A DNA stretch of 64,000 bases, taken from Thermoproteota archaeon (lineage in GTDB: Archaea > Korarchaeota > Korarchaeia > Korarchaeales > Korarchaeaceae). Each line of letters starts with the position of its first letter. Position 1 is the stretch's first letter. Both the position numbers and the translations under genes were made by a program. The stretch is from positions 288,001-352,000 of the forward strand of contig JALSOH010000006.1 in assembly GCA_026986575.1 (NCBI GenBank), given 5' to 3'. The notes beneath the pieces were generated by a model. The model was not told where the DNA came from. It saw only the letters and a list, made by a program, of their open reading frames with translations, and did not search any database. Of this stretch, positions 39,216-46,139 are shown piece after piece.

Positions 39216-40028
39216 TCACTCTACATTTAAAGGTCTCACTAAAAAATCCACACGTATTTTGTACACTCTAGGAGCATAGCTGGAGACAATGCGGTGACCT
39301 ACGGAGGTGGCCTCTAAACCTAGGGAAGTAGCCTCCTTCCTGAACATCTCTTCGGCCTCCGAGAGGGCCTCATCTCCCCCCCAGTAGTAAAAGTGAACGA
39401 CACCTCTCCCTCCCCTGAGCGCCCGGAGGGCGTGACCGATGAAGGCGTAAGCTCCCTTAGGCAGGGGCATGACCACCCTGTTGAATTTGCCGTACATGGC
39501 GGGCGTGACGTAAGCCACATCCCCCTCAACGGGGAAGACGAGGTGCCCTACCCTGTTGAGGATAACATTCTCTTGGAAGTACTTGACAGCTGTCGGGTTC
39601 AACTCGATCCCGACCACTTGGGCCCTCCTGCGCTTGGCGATGGCGATCGCGTAGGGGCCGGCTCCCGCAAACATCACCAGCACCAGCTCCCCATCCCTCA
39701 CGCTTTCCGCCACCAGCTGCCTCTCGGTCGATTCCCTGGGGGAGAAGTACACCCTACGGGGATCAAGCTTTATCCTGTATCCGTGTTCCTTGTGGATGAC
39801 CTCAGTCTCCTCGCTGCCGGCCAAGAGCTTCAGGGGCCTCACCCTGAACTCACCCTCTCTAGCCCCCGCTTTCAACAAAACGGACTTGACGTGGGGATGG
39901 CGACTCATCACCTCCTTAGCTGCCTCCTTCGGGTCCATGTCGTCGGGTACTTCTACGATGGCCACGGCTCCCGTTTCCCTAGAGCCTATGAGATCGTAAG
40001 GTATCCTAAGTCCCTTTTTCTTATCCAA
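39216..40028 (-). CDS. trm5: tRNA G37 methyltransferase, Trm5/Taw family
   Basis: Motifs HKEHG, YFSPR..ER, MFAGAGPY, ELNP, VMPLPK. Confidence 0.85.
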   Translation of the reverse strand: MDKKKGLRIPYDLIGSRETGAVAIVEVPDDMDPKEAAKEVMSRHPHVKSVLLKAGAREGEFRVRPLKLLAGSEETEVIHKEHGYRIKLDPRRVYFSPRESTERQLVAESVRDGELVLVMFAGAGPYAIAIAKRRRAQVVGIELNPTAVKYFQENVILNRVGHLVFPVEGDVAYVTPAMYGKFNRVVMPLPKGAYAFIGHALRALRGGRGVVHFYYWGGDEALSEAEEMFRKEATSLGLEATSVGHRIVSSYAPRVYKIRVDFLVRPLNVE

Positions 40029-40782
40029 GACCGTACACCTTCATGGCGTTTCCGGTTGTTATCTCTGCCAAATCCTCTACATCAACCCCCTTCATTTCGG
40101 CCACGAACTTTGCTGAGATCCTGATGTTCGCAGGTTCGTTCCTCTCCTTGGGGTTGGGAGCGAGCACAGGTGAGTCGGACTCCAGCACCATGTGATCCAC
40201 TGGAGTGGCCCTAGCCACCTTCTGAACGTTGTTGGATCTTACCACGTTGGTGGGGACACTGATAATCCATCCCCTCTCCACCGCAAACCTGACATCCTCC
40301 GGGGTCCCTCCAAACGCATGTAGGATGATCCTCTCAGCCCCTTCCTCATCTAACACTCTTAGAACGGGTCTTTGGGCCCACAGGCTGTGAATTACCAATG
40401 GTTTGTCCAGTTCTTTGGCGAGCCTTATGAAGAGCCTAAACACCTCCTTCTGCTTCTCTTTCGGGGGACCACCGGACCTTAGAATTCTGTAATCCAGTCC
40501 CACCTCTCCTACCGCAACTATCTCATTGGCGTGGGCCCTTATCAGGTCCATGGTAATCTCCACCTCCTCCTCGTCCCCGTACTCAGCGACATCTAATCCA
40601 ATAGACACCTTCACCAGCTGATGTCCCCTGAACAATCTTAGAGCCTTCTCCGCATCTTCTGGGTAAATGGGAGAGGTCACTATGCCCACTAGTCCAGCTT
40701 CTCTCGCCCTCTCAATCACTTCATCTCTATCCCCGTCGAAGGCCTCCTCCTCGAGGTGACAGTGGGCGTCAAATAACCTCAT
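40021..40782 (-). CDS. tatD: TatD-family nuclease
   Basis: Motifs DAHCHL, GEVGLDY, VIHS, LESDSP, NEP. Confidence 0.9.
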   Translation of the reverse strand: MRLFDAHCHLEEEAFDGDRDEVIERAREAGLVGIVTSPIYPEDAEKALRLFRGHQLVKVSIGLDVAEYGDEEEVEITMDLIRAHANEIVAVGEVGLDYRILRSGGPPKEKQKEVFRLFIRLAKELDKPLVIHSLWAQRPVLRVLDEEGAERIILHAFGGTPEDVRFAVERGWIISVPTNVVRSNNVQKVARATPVDHMVLESDSPVLAPNPKERNEPANIRISAKFVAEMKGVDVEDLAEITTGNAMKVYGLG

Positions 40783-41666
40783 CACACTACCTCCCTCTCG
40801 AGCCTCTCCTTCAGCCTGCAGAAGGCGCAAACCCTGCCCGATGTCGGGTAACCGCACTTCTCGCACAAATTAATCTTGCGTGGTGGGGGTTCAGCCATCT
40901 TCGCAAGCTCCCTCAAACTGCTCACGAAATTGACTAGGGATGAGGGCCACTTCTTCCTGACCTGATTAAGTAGGGGTTTGATTTCGGCCTGCTTATCCCT
41001 TCCCTCGTAAGGACACTTGGTGACGCAGGTTGGAAGACCCTTCATCTTCACGTAGTTCAAGGCGTCGGAATCACTGACCCAGAAGAGGGGCTTTACCTTT
41101 CCAGCCATCTTGTACTCAGGCATAGGCTTGGTGACGGAATCGTACTGGTAGAAGAGGTAATCTAGGGAATGAGTGATGAGGTTGTTGAACCCGAAGTAGG
41201 CCATGTCATCCAAGTTATGGCCTGTAGCGACGTAATCGTACCCCCTCTCCACAGCGTACCTATTCAACAGGTACCTGTTGACCACCCCGCAGACGAAACA
41301 GGCGGCCCTAGGATCAGGAGGGACCTTTATCCCCCATTCTCTCAAATCTATGACAACCCCTTCCATCCTCAGCTCCTCGGTTAGAGATTTGAAGACCTCG
41401 AGGCAATCGGGGGCCAAGCCAGTGTACACTATCGCAGCCCCCAGCTTGAGCCGGTACTTGGGTGCGACTAGGCTGGATGCATGCAGGGCTGCCACGGAAT
41501 CCTTTCCGCCTGACACCCCGAACAGGAGGGAACTACCTTTCCCGACCCTCCTCAACACGCGGTCAACTCTTTTCAGGAAATACCTTTCGAAGTGCTCCTC
41601 GCAAACCCAATCACCTAAATTCTCCACGAATATGGTACCTTCACGCTGGCAGTAGTGGCATTTCAT
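40782..41666 (-). CDS. tRNA 2-thiolation protein (TtuA/Ncs6 family)
   Basis: Terminal zinc fingers; SGGKDS PP-loop; CFVC, GHNLDD, CPY. Confidence 0.88.
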   Translation of the reverse strand: MKCHYCQREGTIFVENLGDWVCEEHFERYFLKRVDRVLRRVGKGSSLLFGVSGGKDSVAALHASSLVAPKYRLKLGAAIVYTGLAPDCLEVFKSLTEELRMEGVVIDLREWGIKVPPDPRAACFVCGVVNRYLLNRYAVERGYDYVATGHNLDDMAYFGFNNLITHSLDYLFYQYDSVTKPMPEYKMAGKVKPLFWVSDSDALNYVKMKGLPTCVTKCPYEGRDKQAEIKPLLNQVRKKWPSSLVNFVSSLRELAKMAEPPPRKINLCEKCGYPTSGRVCAFCRLKERLEREVV

Positions 41667-41725
41667 CGCTAACACCGGACAAACTATTTATATAACTTCC
41701 TCGATTTAAAGGGAGGAGGATCTGG

Positions 41726-41860
41726 GGGGCCGTGGCCCAGCCTGGCTCTCCCCCCATGATTGGGGGAACGCCCTGGAAAGGTAGGGCGGCGGGCTCCAGT
41801 CATTGGAGCACTGAGGGGGAGACCCGTAGGACGTGGGTTCAAGTCCCACCGGCCCCACCA
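41726..41860 (+). tRNA. trnW: tRNA-Trp(CCA) with two introns (41743-41778 at 17/17a; 41800-41821 at 37/38) and encoded CCA end
   Basis: Acceptor GGGGCCG/CGGCCCC, D stem GCCC/GGGC, anticodon stem GCGGG/CCCGT with loop CT-CCA-G|A, T arm GTGGG-TTCAAGT-CCCAC. Both introns fit bulge-helix-bulge geometry; spliced length is 77 nt. Confidence 0.93.
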
Positions 41861-41879
41861 CCTCCGTTCTACAGGGGGC

Positions 41880-43331
41880 GTGGTCCCGACGAACATTGCG
41901 GCTGTTAGATCCTTGGACAGGGATGTGAGGGATGCGGTCAAACACACCTTGAACTCACTGGGCCTATTCTGGGAGGAGGTGGATGAACCAGATCCCCTGA
42001 AGCACTCCGTGGCCATATTCCCCGAGGCCACCGAATTCGTCCCCGTAACTATCCCCTCGATATTCGTGGGCGAGACGGCTCTCTCCTACTACGGGGGAGA
42101 TAAGACGGAAGTGAAGAAATCCCCACCTGAGCCTGCAGGCTTCATGGTAGTGGACAGGATAAAGATACCCTACTTCGGAGCCAAGTATGATCTAGAAGGC
42201 GAGAGATTGCTCAGACAGGCCCCTCTCTACTCCAAGGATTCGCACCTCCTCTTGGGATACGACCTCTTCAGGAATGTGAGCTACTTCCTAAAGGGGGCCG
42301 AGTCCTCCTTGGGCATGAAGAGGATAAGGACCAGCGACAGGCGCTTCAACCCCAAGGTCCTGGAGGACCTTAGAGGGGTCCCCGTATCCACCCCTATAGT
42401 TGATATGCATGCTAAGTTCCTCCTCTTCTCCATCCTCCTCCTCCACAAAAGGGAGAGACTCCCTCTCATAATGAAACAAATCCCCCCTTCTGGCTATAAG
42501 GGGGGAATGTCCGTCTCCATTCCCATATACAGGACGGGGCGTTCCGGCCTGAAGTTCGACCTGAGAAGGGTGCTTCGAAGAACGGAATCTTGGATAGAGA
42601 GGTTGATTAAGGGAACCGAGGACCTCACGTTCTTCGTGGGAAGGGGAGAGGACTACACTCCGACTAAGATCAGGGACCTGCTCGTATCGATGGAGGAGAG
42701 CGGTCATGAGGTGGGCCTCTTGGCCTCAGTCAGGGCCTCCATAGATCACATGTCGATGGCCGAGGAGTACGAGGAGGTGGCCACCCTCATAAAGAGGGGG
42801 GGCATAGGGATCAGGTTCAAGGGTATAGCCTCTACTCTAATGGACGCTTGGAAGTCGGCGGTGTACGTCGAGGCGGGATACGTACTTGCAGGCGAGATCG
42901 CTGGGGTATTCGGGTTCCCAATAGGCATCGGATGCCCATTCAAGCCTAACGGCCTTGTCTGGAACATCCCACTCGTGGGGAGGGTCTCTGATAGAGGGTC
43001 AGCTTCGAGAGCAGCGGAGTTTGTGGCCAATTGGGGATGTATGGTGGCAGTCGATGCTATTGACGAGTTATCCATCCTCTCTCTCCTCAGAAACGCTCGC
43101 GAGAGAGGAATATGGGTCGCCCCGCCCAGCACCCTAGTTGAGAGGTTCAGGGCGGTGAGCGACGTGAAGGGGACCTTCAGGTACGATAGGAAGTACTTGG
43201 AGGGTAAGATAGTGCCCTATGGTAATGTGAAAGACCTTCAACTCAGGGTGATAAATCCCGAGGGCAAGGACTCCGTCATGAGGATTGATCTGGAGGCTGG
43301 GAAATCGCACGAGATCAGAATCCCCGTATAG
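41880..43331 (+). CDS. Degenerate polysaccharide-deacetylase-like protein
   Basis: Motifs P.VD, TFFV, GHEVGLL, GIRF, GFPIGIGCPF. Start placed at GTG 41880, just after the tRNA. Confidence 0.65.
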   Translation: MVPTNIAAVRSLDRDVRDAVKHTLNSLGLFWEEVDEPDPLKHSVAIFPEATEFVPVTIPSIFVGETALSYYGGDKTEVKKSPPEPAGFMVVDRIKIPYFGAKYDLEGERLLRQAPLYSKDSHLLLGYDLFRNVSYFLKGAESSLGMKRIRTSDRRFNPKVLEDLRGVPVSTPIVDMHAKFLLFSILLLHKRERLPLIMKQIPPSGYKGGMSVSIPIYRTGRSGLKFDLRRVLRRTESWIERLIKGTEDLTFFVGRGEDYTPTKIRDLLVSMEESGHEVGLLASVRASIDHMSMAEEYEEVATLIKRGGIGIRFKGIASTLMDAWKSAVYVEAGYVLAGEIAGVFGFPIGIGCPFKPNGLVWNIPLVGRVSDRGSASRAAEFVANWGCMVAVDAIDELSILSLLRNARERGIWVAPPSTLVERFRAVSDVKGTFRYDRKYLEGKIVPYGNVKDLQLRVINPEGKDSVMRIDLEAGKSHEIRIPV

Positions 43332-44181
43332 CCTCTTTAGAAAGCCTGTGGGCTAGTATGAGGGGTAGGGGCTGCTTTCCTTCCCTCCAGAACTTCTTGG
43401 ATATTTCTATACTGCTCTCCAAGTCTATTAGGTGACCCGGGGAGACGAATGCTCTCCCCACAACGGCACCGACCACCCTGCCTTGGAGGAGGACGCGGTC
43501 CCCCTCCAATCTCCCCACCAGCTTAGACTTCGCAACTCCGATGGAGGACTTTCCCAGAAGCAACCCTAGATGTGAAGCCTCCCCTAGCATCCTCGGATGG
43601 GAAAGACCGTGTCCATCCACAAATATCACATCAAAATCACATTTGAGGGCGGAGGGGAGCATACCCCTCAACTCCCTGAAGGCTAGGTAGGTTGGCACAT
43701 AAGGTATTTGGGGTATGAATCTCTCGTAAGCCACCCCGACGATCTCCAATTTGGAATCAACCGAGACACAGGTTGCGACAGCCTCCTCGCTCCCATAACT
43801 GACATCGACACCGGCAGCCACTTCCACTTCTTTCAGGGATCTTAGATCCAGCCTCGAGGAGAGCATTAGCTGAGCCTCCGCCATCAGCCGGAAGACGGGC
43901 CAGGCCCTAATATCGTGGAAGAACTTCCTCTCCCTGAGACGTTCGAGTCCTCCCTCCTCCCTGATTCTCTTCAAGGCTCCTGGAAGTGGTTTACCGTCTG
44001 AGGACACAGCCCTCCACCAGGGAACATGAGGTGCGAGGTTAGACAACCTCAGGCACTCATTTCTCACAGCGAGAGCGGCCCTGACATCCCCAAGGGCTGA
44101 GGCTATGTCACCGAATGAAGATACCCTACCCGGGGGGATGCTCTGCAAGGCCTCAGCAAGTATCTCTTGGAAGCGCGTCAG
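43315..44181 (-). CDS. nfi: Alkyltransferase-like (ATL) domain fused to endonuclease V
   Basis: IPPGRVSSFGDIA..VPWWRAV (no catalytic Cys), then GVDVSY, YVPTYLAFRE, VDGHG..HPR, GVAK. The ORF track start is TTG 44148; CTG 44181 fits better. Confidence 0.88.
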   Translation of the reverse strand: MTRFQEILAEALQSIPPGRVSSFGDIASALGDVRAALAVRNECLRLSNLAPHVPWWRAVSSDGKPLPGALKRIREEGGLERLRERKFFHDIRAWPVFRLMAEAQLMLSSRLDLRSLKEVEVAAGVDVSYGSEEAVATCVSVDSKLEIVGVAYERFIPQIPYVPTYLAFRELRGMLPSALKCDFDVIFVDGHGLSHPRMLGEASHLGLLLGKSSIGVAKSKLVGRLEGDRVLLQGRVVGAVVGRAFVSPGHLIDLESSIEISKKFWREGKQPLPLILAHRLSKEAIRGF

Positions 44182-44228: not shown

Positions 44229-46139
44229 ATGATCACAGACCCACTCGGCTCCATGAAATCAGCTCTAGCTGGTGAAGTGAATAAAGCCCTCTCAGAGATG
44301 GAGGTGGAGGAGTCCTTCTCCTCCCTCCAAGTGGCTCGATCCCCTAAGGATACCGATGTCTATGGACTACCGGTCGGATTTAAAATAGCTAGATACTTGA
44401 AGAGGAAGCCGGAGGAAGCGGCGCTTTTAGTGGCTGAGAGGATAGATGCCTCCAGCATACCGTATACTGAGGAAGTGAGGGTTGAAAATGGATACCTTAA
44501 CGTGAGGATTTCTCGTGAGGTCCTCTTCAAGGATGTCCTCTACCTGGCGTCTAGGGAGGAGCTGGGCAGGGGGGAGAGGAAGGGAGAGAGGCTCATGGTG
44601 GAGCACACCAGCGTAAACCCAGTGCATCCCCTACACGTAGGCAGCGGGAGGAACGCTATAATAGGCGACTCCTTCGCCCGAATATTGGACTTCCTAGGCT
44701 GGGATGTTAGGAGGCACTATCTAGTGAACGATTGTAACCTGCAAGTCGCGATACTAGCAGCTGGCAGGTCCAAGATGAGGCATCTCAAACCGAAGGGGAA
44801 GCTGGATCACTGGTTCGGTCTAATATACGCCATGGCTAATGCGGTACTGGAGATAAACAGGATCAAGAGAGGTGAATCCGAGGAGGGGAATCTGAAGGAG
44901 TGGGAGGAGACCATAGAAAGGGTTAGAGCCCAAGATCCTGAGATAGCCGGGGGACTAGCCGAGCTTGACGACCGCTACGTCATGGATCTCCTGAAGAGGT
45001 ATCAGTCCGGGGACCCCGATGCGAGGGAGGTCTTCAGGGAAGTTGCGGAGTCGGTCCTTAGAGGTTTTCTCCAGACCTTGGGCAGGATGGGCATAGCCTA
45101 CGATCAGTTCGACTGGGAGAGCGAGCTCATATGGAAGAGTTGGGTGAGGAAATCCCTAGAGAAGCTAGAATCCTCCGGTTATCTGGGTAGGGACGGTGAA
45201 GCGATATACGTTGATCTCGGGAGGGCGATCAGGGAGAGAGAGGATGTCAGGAGGATATTCGGGCTGACGGAAGACGAGATAAGGAAATTAGAGGAGGAAG
45301 GCAGGCTGGAGGAGGTGGTTCCTGTGAGGTTCTACCTCACCAGATCGGACGGTACGTGGCTGTATACGGGAACGGATGTAGCTTACTCTCTCTTTAAGGT
45401 GGAGGCTACCGATGTCAGGAGGTGCTATAACGTGATCGCCACTGAGCAGACCTTAGAGCAGAAGGAGGTGAGGGCGAGCCTCGCCCTGATGGGCTACGAT
45501 CCGGACTTCCTTGTACACTTCGCTTACGAGATGGTCAACTTGGTCGGGGTGAGGATGTCTGGAAGGAAGGCCCTCTATATAACGTTAGACGATCTCTTGA
45601 ACGAGGCGAAGGCCAAGGTGATGAAGATACTTGAGGAGAGGGGGATGAGCAGGGATCCGGAGATAGAGGAGATAGCAGAGAGAGTAGCTGTAGGCGCCCT
45701 GAAGTATGCCTTGATCAATGTCTCCCCGACCAAGGTGGTCCAGTTTAGATGGGAGAGGGTCCTAGACTTCGAGACGAACAGTGGGCCCTTCGTCCAGTAC
45801 TCCTACACTAGGGCCCATAACATCCTGAAAAAGGCAGGAGAGATCCCTGAATCCTTCGATCCGTCCGAATTATCGTCCGATCTGGAGGTATCCCTAGTTT
45901 ACATGCTGGCAGAGTTCCCGGAGAAGGTGAGGAGTGCTTACCAGCTTCTAAGACCGGATCTGATCTCCCAATACGCTAATGAGCTGGCCTCGAACTTCAA
46001 TAAGTTCTACGAGACCCATCCGGTTATCAACGCTCCTAAGGGAACGAGGGAAGCTAGGATGTGGCTCGTCATGGGAGTGAGAGGTGTCCTAGGGAAGGCG
46101 CTAGACCTCATTGGCGTGCCAAGGCTGGAGAGGATGTAA
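44229..46139 (+). CDS. argS: Arginyl-tRNA synthetase
   Basis: EHTSVNPVHPLHVGSGRN (HIGH), MSGRK, NSGPFVQYSYTRA. Confidence 0.95.
   Translation: MITDPLGSMKSALAGEVNKALSEMEVEESFSSLQVARSPKDTDVYGLPVGFKIARYLKRKPEEAALLVAERIDASSIPYTEEVRVENGYLNVRISREVLFKDVLYLASREELGRGERKGERLMVEHTSVNPVHPLHVGSGRNAIIGDSFARILDFLGWDVRRHYLVNDCNLQVAILAAGRSKMRHLKPKGKLDHWFGLIYAMANAVLEINRIKRGESEEGNLKEWEETIERVRAQDPEIAGGLAELDDRYVMDLLKRYQSGDPDAREVFREVAESVLRGFLQTLGRMGIAYDQFDWESELIWKSWVRKSLEKLESSGYLGRDGEAIYVDLGRAIREREDVRRIFGLTEDEIRKLEEEGRLEEVVPVRFYLTRSDGTWLYTGTDVAYSLFKVEATDVRRCYNVIATEQTLEQKEVRASLALMGYDPDFLVHFAYEMVNLVGVRMSGRKALYITLDDLLNEAKAKVMKILEERGMSRDPEIEEIAERVAVGALKYALINVSPTKVVQFRWERVLDFETNSGPFVQYSYTRAHNILKKAGEIPESFDPSELSSDLEVSLVYMLAEFPEKVRSAYQLLRPDLISQYANELASNFNKFYETHPVINAPKGTREARMWLVMGVRGVLGKALDLIGVPRLERM

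Follow-up and report, generated by a model that had tools for sequence, protein, structure and literature searches.

The 2'-O-methylated cytidine 34 (Cm34) of archaeal tRNA-Trp has been reported previously (PMC7994747, PMC11408192), and in euryarchaea (Haloferax volcanii, Pyrococcus) the pre-tRNA-Trp carries a box C/D guide encoded in its own intron (PMC7994747, PMC11408192, PMC4090602). According to the available portions of these papers, the euryarchaeal guide is contained in one intron with boxes C, D', C' and D (median intron length 65 nucleotides, nt) and is targeted to C34 and U39. Here we describe the tRNA-Trp(CCA) gene of a member of the Korarchaeaceae, found in a 64,000-nt stretch of its genome (Thermoproteota archaeon, assembly GCA_026986575.1, contig JALSOH010000006.1, positions 288,001 to 352,000, forward strand; this whole stretch is the window below, and positions are counted from its first letter). 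The elements of one kink-turn (K-turn) of the box C/D type are placed in two introns of this gene, they are conserved among relatives, the stem that joins them is co-evolving, and the resulting fold excludes both splicing motifs. Judging from the sequences, we give a probability of roughly 60% to the reading that a K-turn built from both introns on the unspliced pre-tRNA guides the formation of Cm34.

The euryarchaeal guides and the gene described here have much in common. In both, the guide belongs to tRNA-Trp and is hosted by the intron between positions 37 and 38, the target is C34 by the rule of the fifth base, the guide base-pairs with the anticodon loop of the very precursor that carries it, and the guide and splicing folds are alternatives to each other. 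The layout is different. In family f1, the family of the window's assembly, the 37/38 intron (intron 2, 22 nt in the window) holds the guide, box D and one strand of the K-turn stem, whereas box C and the other strand are found in a D-loop intron (intron 1). A second motif is absent, and position 39 of the tRNA is C, in contrast to the U39 targeted in euryarchaea. Boxes C and D are therefore not contained in one contiguous RNA or intron, exon 2 being situated between them, and this placement in separate introns is the point of novelty.

Functional RNAs with non-collinear or non-contiguous parts have been described in archaea, e.g., split and permuted tRNAs (PMC3218864) and a C/D small RNA (sRNA) of Nanoarchaeum with box D upstream of box C (PMC3491384), which in this respect are similar to the gene of family f1. 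As far as the accessible text of these sources extends, however, such rearranged genes involve separate transcripts or circular permutation, and none has the strands of a K-turn in two introns of one precursor. The literature, in its accessible portions, describes complete guides in a single intron of tRNA-Trp (and of one tRNA-Met), chiefly in Euryarchaeota (PMC7994747, PMC11408192, PMC4090602, PMC8450103, PMC6009581). No guide divided between two introns was found in these portions, and a prior mention is possible, e.g., in supplementary tRNA tables for the lineage. Apparently, the halves of a box C/D guide motif in two introns of one tRNA have not yet been described.

Elements of the proposed K-turn in the two introns

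The genome set covered a small phylum of 43 species genomes, 36 of which, including the window's assembly (G000), constitute family f1. Alignment A1 comprises 28 distinct tRNA-Trp sequences from genomes of this family, and counts out of 28 refer to it. The elements are located in the window as follows.

41726-41860, + strand: tRNA-Trp(CCA) gene with two introns, parsed by hand from the sequence
41726-41742, 41779-41799 and 41822-41860, + strand: exons of tRNA-Trp(CCA), with the encoded CCA at 41858-60
41743-41778, + strand: D-loop intron (intron 1) of 36 nt, inserted between positions 17 and 17a, ends set by compensatory change
41747-41754, + strand: S1, UCUCCCCC, intron-1 strand of the inter-intron stem (putative canonical stem of the K-turn), exact complement of 41815-22
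41755-41757, + strand: CAU, proposed 3-nt bulge of the K-turn, before the GA of the box C-like motif
41756-41762, + strand: box C-like motif AUGAUUG, in which G41758 and A41759 are the proposed sheared-pair partners of box D
41793-41799, + strand: target strand G31-G37 in the anticodon arm, C34 being 41796; columns invariant in A1
41800-41821, + strand: intron 2 of 22 nt, canonical 37/38 position as given by the tRNA parse
41803-41809, + strand: guide UUGGAGC, complementary to G31-G37 by six Watson-Crick pairs and one G.U pair
41811-41814, + strand: box D, CUGA, with GA invariant in 28/28
41815-41822, + strand: S2, GGGGGAGA, partner of S1; 41816-19 are shared with the splicing helix of intron 2, and 41822 is exon base A38

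For intron 2, our analysis bears out what the original prediction had proposed. The guide is complementary to the tRNA's own G31-G37 in the pairs listed, the fifth nucleotide upstream of box D (G41806) is opposite C34, and no box C is present in the intron. The single base A41810 serves as spacer between guide and box D. The box in intron 1 is the only candidate partner for the box D of intron 2. The splicing motif of intron 2 consists of a helix between C32-C35 (CUCC, 41794-97) and GGGG at 41816-19, paired in 99% of the alignment cells, with the bulges A36-G37-U41800 (AGU) and A41820-G41821-A38 (AGA). A model with the guide helix doubling as the splicing helix was discarded, because the 3' cut would land in the wrong place.

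Intron 1, separated from intron 2 by an exon of 21 nt, carries a splicing motif of its own, composed of helix H (41737-40/41773-76, CCAG/CUGG), the bulges CCU and AAA and helix h' (41744-46/41770-72), and encloses an inner hairpin in which 41749-54 are paired with 41762-67. Helix H pairs in all 28 aligned sequences and contains a compensatory pair: D-stem base 13 is mostly C together with the tail CUGG, and is U together with CUAG in five rows. A double change was found in helix h' as well, and the intron's own hairpin covaries too. The compensatory change in this bulge-helix-bulge helix sets the ends of the intron at 41743 and 41778, and the mature D-loop is hence AGCC+AGGUA, which is normal. 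Owing to its weak outer helix, the splice motif of intron 1 is a relaxed bulge-helix-bulge.

The same intron provides the second half of the putative K-turn. UCUCCCCC at 41747-54 and GGGGGAGA at 41815-22, directly after box D, are exact reverse complements, and the 8-bp (base pair) stem proposed between them stands, with the correction that A41822, the last base of the G-run strand, belongs to the exon as A38. The coordinates also confirm the layout of the intron-1 box, with CAU (41755-57) unpaired as a 3-nt bulge ahead of GAU. The consensus of box C is RUGAUGA. AUGAUUG matches it at five of seven positions and deviates at positions 6 and 7, which makes two deviations in place of the one counted originally. 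Among the aligned sequences R-U-G-A of this box is invariant (28/28), U5 is kept in 27/28, and position 6 is never G in family f1.

Two other uses of the intron-1 loop were rejected. Kissing of its AUGA with UCAU at the start of intron 2 was dismissed as these intron-2 bases vary freely among orthologs, and a K-turn or K-loop formed by the intron 1 hairpin alone was dismissed as the second GA is missing from the loop in most orthologs.

Conservation and covariation of the inter-intron stem

The original prediction named conservation of both boxes and covariation of the stem in relatives as its test, and this test turned out in its favor. A DNA search revealed the split layout in 33 of the 36 family f1 genomes. 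In G018, G023 and G035 (70%, 91% and 71% complete) tRNA-Trp was not found, which does not imply its absence, and a search of five genomes with the pattern GGGCTCCAG was too unspecific to locate the gene. One metagenome scan yielded 20 contigs, 18 of them with the full region, of which seven differ from all sequences of A1 and five are new distinct sequences. The resulting 33 distinct sequences represent four genera and metagenome lineages. All of them agree with K-turn geometry at the sequence level, keeping a stem of at least 5 bp (5-8 bp), a 3-nt bulge and both GA motifs abutting the stem, while the remainder of both introns varies in sequence and length in A1. The helix count was anchored on the K-turn, i.e., on a 3-nt bulge before the GA of box C and a start directly after the GA of box D, which is why all 33 sequences have a bulge of exactly 3 nt. 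Each of the motifs is short when taken alone and could suggest a chance resemblance in one gene; we regard this explanation as highly improbable, since the arrangement is kept in all these sequences amid diverging intron sequence.

The guide core GGAGC is invariant in A1, and the one-base spacing between guide and box D is invariant as well (28/28), so that the fifth base upstream always faces C34. Six pairs of the guide hairpin (G31-A36) are kept in 26-28 of the 28 sequences, and the seventh pair is G-C in 12, G.U in 8 and unpaired in 6. Box D occurs as CUGA, AUGA or UUGA in 24/28 and as UCGA or UAGA in 4/28. The guide hairpin was also recovered by a blind RNAalifold prediction on the orthologs. 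Genus g3 has an intron 2 of roughly double length (34-46 nt), and its guide duplex runs two to three pairs into the 5' end of this intron with compensatory changes, reaching 9-10 bp; the substrate of the guide there must hence still hold intron 2.

The inner 5 bp of the inter-intron stem pair in 28/28 sequences, and three pairs of the stem show double changes. One of them, an outer pair, occurs as C-G and as G-C in 9 sequences each and is open in 8; another is C-G in 24 and U-A in 4; the third is C-G in 18, U.G in 9 and U-A in 1. Stem and guide hairpin together are paired in 90.7% of the cells of A1, with five pairs changing on both sides, and pairing falls to 44-60% when the 3' partners are slid by one to three columns out of the true register. 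Among 15 distinct stem types, the mean is 6.27 bp with the own partner vs 4.38 bp with permuted partners, and none of 20,000 permutations reached the observed total in a test whose model leaves out relatedness. Metagenome lineage L157 possesses an extra G in the intron-1 strand and an extra C in the intron-2 strand beside the K-turn; matched to each other, its strands reach 6 bp, and no pairing at all (0 bp) results when either is combined with any of the 14 other types. Thus, the division of the guide across two introns, as originally proposed, is supported by conservation in the family, by covariation and by the missing box C in intron 2.

These data have to be read together with the other helices in which the same bases take part. 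The C-run of intron 1 also matches the G-run of its own intron, and the G-run of intron 2 must pair with CUCC, so the evidence from the inner 5 bp is confounded; the clean signal of covariation therefore comes from the outer pairs and the extra pair of L157, which are outside both other helices. Moreover, in the blind RNAalifold prediction the partner of the C-run is the G-run within intron 1, and the inter-intron stem is not recovered. Both observations, together with the covariation of intron 1's own hairpin, would suit an explanation without any inter-intron K-turn, according to which the guide and box D are the decaying relic of a once complete ancestral guide, the UGAU loop of intron 1 is kept for an unrelated reason, and the C-run fits the second G-run just because it already fits the first. 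This explanation leaves unaccounted for the outer pairs, which change on both sides (C-G in 9, G-C in 9) although no other helix includes them, and the extra C after box D in L157, which is unneeded for splicing yet matches the extra G in intron 1. It is also at odds with the exact bulge length and the GA motifs abutting the stem in 33/33 sequences, and with the loop motif of intron 1, which matches in form the partner boxes adjoining box D at 47 loci elsewhere (see below). We consider it improbable.

Competing folds and the proposed order of methylation and splicing

The mutual exclusion of guide fold and splicing fold was upheld from coordinates and from folding, and it is wider than first stated. 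The inter-intron stem takes the G-run of the 4-bp splicing helix of intron 2 and the guide hairpin takes the other strand of that helix, and the stem in addition crosses the D stem, the anticodon stem and helices H and h' of intron 1. The splicing-competent structure is conserved as well, with 91.7% of cells paired and five pairs with double changes in A1.

Folding of the window's pre-tRNA at 37 °C gave -73.6 kcal/mol without constraints, -69.6 kcal/mol for the C/D fold and -58.3 kcal/mol for the fold with both splicing motifs; at 80 °C the corresponding values were -25.1, -23.0 and -17.3 kcal/mol. The doubly splicing-competent fold is thus predicted to be less stable than the C/D fold by 11 kcal/mol (37 °C) and 6 kcal/mol (80 °C). 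At 80 °C the unconstrained minimum free energy (MFE) structure of the window's pre-tRNA already holds the inter-intron stem and the guide hairpin. Among the 28 orthologs, the MFE structure contains the guide hairpin in 23 at both temperatures and the inter-intron stem in 17 at 80 °C, and the splicing helices in none.

We propose the following course of events. Before splicing, a helix would form between the C-run in the D-loop intron and the terminal G-run of the 37/38 intron, uniting the 3-nt bulge, the GA of the box C-like motif and the GA of box D. The guide of intron 2 would form a short hairpin with the anticodon loop, placing C34 opposite the fifth base from box D. L7Ae may then bind the K-turn on the unspliced precursor, Nop5-fibrillarin would dock, and C34 would be 2'-O-methylated in cis. 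The RNA would have to refold before the endonuclease cuts, after which both introns would be removed. Box C is lost with intron 1, and neither the stem nor the guide duplex can persist once the intron-2 splicing motif has formed; methylation would hence have to be the earlier event. A precedent for modification before splicing is offered by Methanopyrus, for which introns are reported to be removed after modification, the canonical intron ahead of one in the D-loop (PMC3695527).

A stronger version of this proposal is a checkpoint, in which the pre-tRNA initially adopts a shape unlike that of a tRNA, the guide ribonucleoprotein (RNP) is one molecule only on the doubly unspliced precursor, and methylation of C34 and release of the RNP license splicing, so that the order is hard-wired. 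We put this forward tentatively, as a possibility with the odds somewhat against it.

The machinery that such a guide would recruit is encoded in the genome. G000 contains adjacent genes for fibrillarin (292 bits) and Nop5 (Nop, 218 bits), as well as two genes of the L7Ae family (Ribosomal_L7Ae, 105 and 69 bits). Scans of G000 for canonical C/D sRNAs returned no candidates with two regular-expression scans, three with a looser one and 20 with a stem-based one, several of which are convincing; the canonical-looking sRNAs have G+C-rich terminal stems of 6-8 bp, like the proposed inter-intron stem. A separate guide for C34 was looked for by a register-aware scan of the genome, which revealed 33 sites with at least eight contiguous pairs (G.U allowed), none of them with an adjacent box C or C' by eye; the scan was simple and a degenerate guide could escape it. 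A loose search for GGAGC-NN-TGA matched mostly coding DNA and a CRISPR array outside the window (G000:C6:439766-441739, 25 repeat copies, spacings of 73-98 nt). Apart from tRNA-Trp, the Rfam model detected four intron-bearing tRNAs in G000, and their 37/38 introns are ordinary and devoid of such motifs. An intron-bearing tRNA at G000:C4:126484-126591 (-), likewise outside the window, has the anticodon UAU, and tRNA-Ile(UAU) is described, in the accessible text of the source, as replacing tRNA-Ile2 in Korarchaeum and Nanoarchaeum (PMC8450103).

The same boxes and the same stem would also serve in trans, if the excised introns annealed and a bipartite C/D RNP methylated other copies of pre-tRNA-Trp or mature tRNA-Trp. 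This has an analogy in the intron guide of Haloferax, for which later work is reported to have demonstrated action in trans (PMC7994747, PMC11408192). The excised intron 2, however, keeps only seven bases of the stem strand in the window, and 13 of the 28 sequences would form 5 bp at most, a weak intermolecular duplex for a thermophile; the excised intron 1 can moreover close its own hairpin on the same C-run, and the genus g3 duplex, which extends 2-3 bp into intron 2, implies a substrate that retains this intron. Hence, action in trans seems unlikely to us.

A further explanation assigns the K-turn a structural or regulatory role, e.g., as a chaperone or a timer of splicing, with L7Ae bound and the guide-like hairpin inherited as a remnant that directs nothing. 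It would agree with the conservation of two folds that exclude each other, with the short guide duplex and with the lack of a second C'/D' motif. A remnant would nevertheless be expected to drift, and the spacing to C34 and the GGAGC core are invariant (28/28 for the spacing), and the duplex of genus g3 has been lengthened with compensatory changes. We regard a purely structural role as about as unlikely as action in trans.

Several points weigh against a Cm34 guide built from both introns, in addition to the confounded inner pairs, the RNAalifold result and the relatedness outside the permutation model. Because both the D stem and the anticodon stem are crossed by the inter-intron stem, the C/D conformer would leave a large part of the tRNA unfolded, and at 37 °C the stem is part of the MFE structure in just 3/28 orthologs. 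The stem is just 5 bp long in 13/28 sequences, and the box C-like motif departs from the consensus at positions 6-7. The guide duplex amounts to 7 bp in the window (one of them G.U) and to 5-7 bp in genera g1, g2 and g5, which is below the antisense element of about 9 bp or more beside box D given as a criterion for prediction of C/D guides in the accessible part of PMC6009581. No D'- or C'-like pair, and thus no second C'/D' motif, was seen between box C and the guide in the window sequence, and the two-motif architecture of archaeal C/D RNPs is emphasized in PMC1635284, as far as its available text goes. Finally, the scan for a trans-acting guide was of the limited kind mentioned.

The introns of tRNA-Trp with their guides are a textbook example of introns serving their own host RNA, and it has been debated whether they act in cis or in trans. 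In family f1 the guide motif is complete only when both introns are in place, so the question becomes directly testable: mutation of one intron should abolish the modification directed by the other. Two conserved folds, one suited to modification and the other to splicing, exclude each other in the same precursor RNA. If the proposal is true, nature would here have distributed a single K-turn over two introns, suggesting that widely separated parts of a precursor can come together as a protein-binding site of this kind. In practical terms, split guides will escape any search that demands both boxes within one short RNA, and such a gene is also missed by standard tRNA finders.

Distribution of tRNA-Trp guides and surroundings of the gene

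The pattern of anticodon loop, short loop, GGAGC, two bases and TGA was present in 109 of 401 sampled genomes. From outside the phylum, 55 loci were taken (L036, L083-L135, L137), of which 49 have a downstream T-loop motif. In 47 of these 49, an R-U-G-A-N box follows box D within 48 nt in the same intron, usually with a hairpin or a short loop between them; the two loci without such a box (L090, L132) are not tRNA-like in appearance. The distance of 1 nt between box D and the box in L087 is a spurious early match, and the real box is located further downstream. Position 6 of the same-intron boxes is G in only 12 of the 47, which resembles the non-G sixth base of family f1, and box D is AUGA in 23, CUGA in 18 and UUGA in 6, the same variants as in family f1. 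Very compact tRNA-Trp introns are widespread outside the phylum; some of them, below 40 nt, comprise nothing beyond the guide, box D, a handful of bases and a box C-like element.

These compact single-intron units share with family f1 the guide core, the register, the variants of box D and a box C with a non-G sixth base. Their guide duplexes are equally short, and several have a single K-turn, so that a single K-turn with a short cis hairpin on the anticodon loop is common to both. They differ in the canonical stem of the K-turn, which in the compact units is a hairpin in one intron and in family f1 is made of strands about 60 nt apart in two introns. With box C in the same intron in the 47 loci elsewhere, the split layout is derived, and the box C half of an ancestral single-intron unit probably came to lie in the D-loop intron.

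Other families of the phylum show different combinations. In family f4 (L146) the layout is that of a single intron, without a D-loop intron. Family f3 (L035 in G038, L139 in G039) has an 18-nt D-loop intron at the site of intron 1, devoid of the box and the inner hairpin, together with a T-loop intron and without a 37/38 intron. Family f2 (L078 in G036, L082 in G037) has one 56-nt 37/38 intron and no D-loop intron; a CUGA/CCGA and a GAUGAAGA box precede an 11-nt stretch complementary to the anticodon, no clear box D follows it, and a 10-bp hairpin with the anticodon loop is kept. This intron may represent a rearranged or decaying guide. Taken together, the D-loop hairpin with a box co-occurs with a 37/38 intron lacking its own box C, and the split layout is confined to family f1 among the genomes searched.

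Some members of family f1 have additional peculiarities in tRNA-Trp. Two loci of genus g2, L026 (G031) and L028 (G034), carry a third intron in the T-loop, and that of L028 includes a perfect GUGAUGA within an inverted repeat. In L027 (G033) and L029 (G030) the acceptor stem begins with A or U facing C72, leaving pair 1:72 mismatched, and CCA is not encoded; the mismatch may reflect repair of the 5' end or an unusual start.

In scans of the window, no tRNA was reported at 41726-41860 by ARAGORN or by Rfam at the gathering score. A permissive Rfam scan of 41680-41900 returned sub-threshold matches alone, among them a tRNA-like one (tmRNA clan) at 41680-41860, and none to C/D families. Archaeal TATA boxes follow an A/T-rich consensus, and one element upstream of the gene is TATA-like.

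41687-41695, + strand: likely archaeal TATA box TTTATATAA, 31-39 nt upstream of the tRNA-Trp gene

The orthologs possess a similar A/T-rich box at equal distance upstream of their tRNA-Trp genes, and a scan of the locus for bacterial promoters and terminators found nothing. An open reading frame at 41760-43331 (+; 523 amino acids, TTG start, no Pfam match) overlaps the tRNA-Trp gene, and a real gene there, if any, probably starts further downstream. Another reading frame, at 43315-44148 (-), has an Endonuclease V domain and an N-terminal 6-O-methylguanine methyltransferase DNA-binding domain. Arginyl-tRNA synthetase (ArgRS) at 44229-46139 (+) and a TatD-family DNase at 40021-40866 (-) are further neighbors of the gene.

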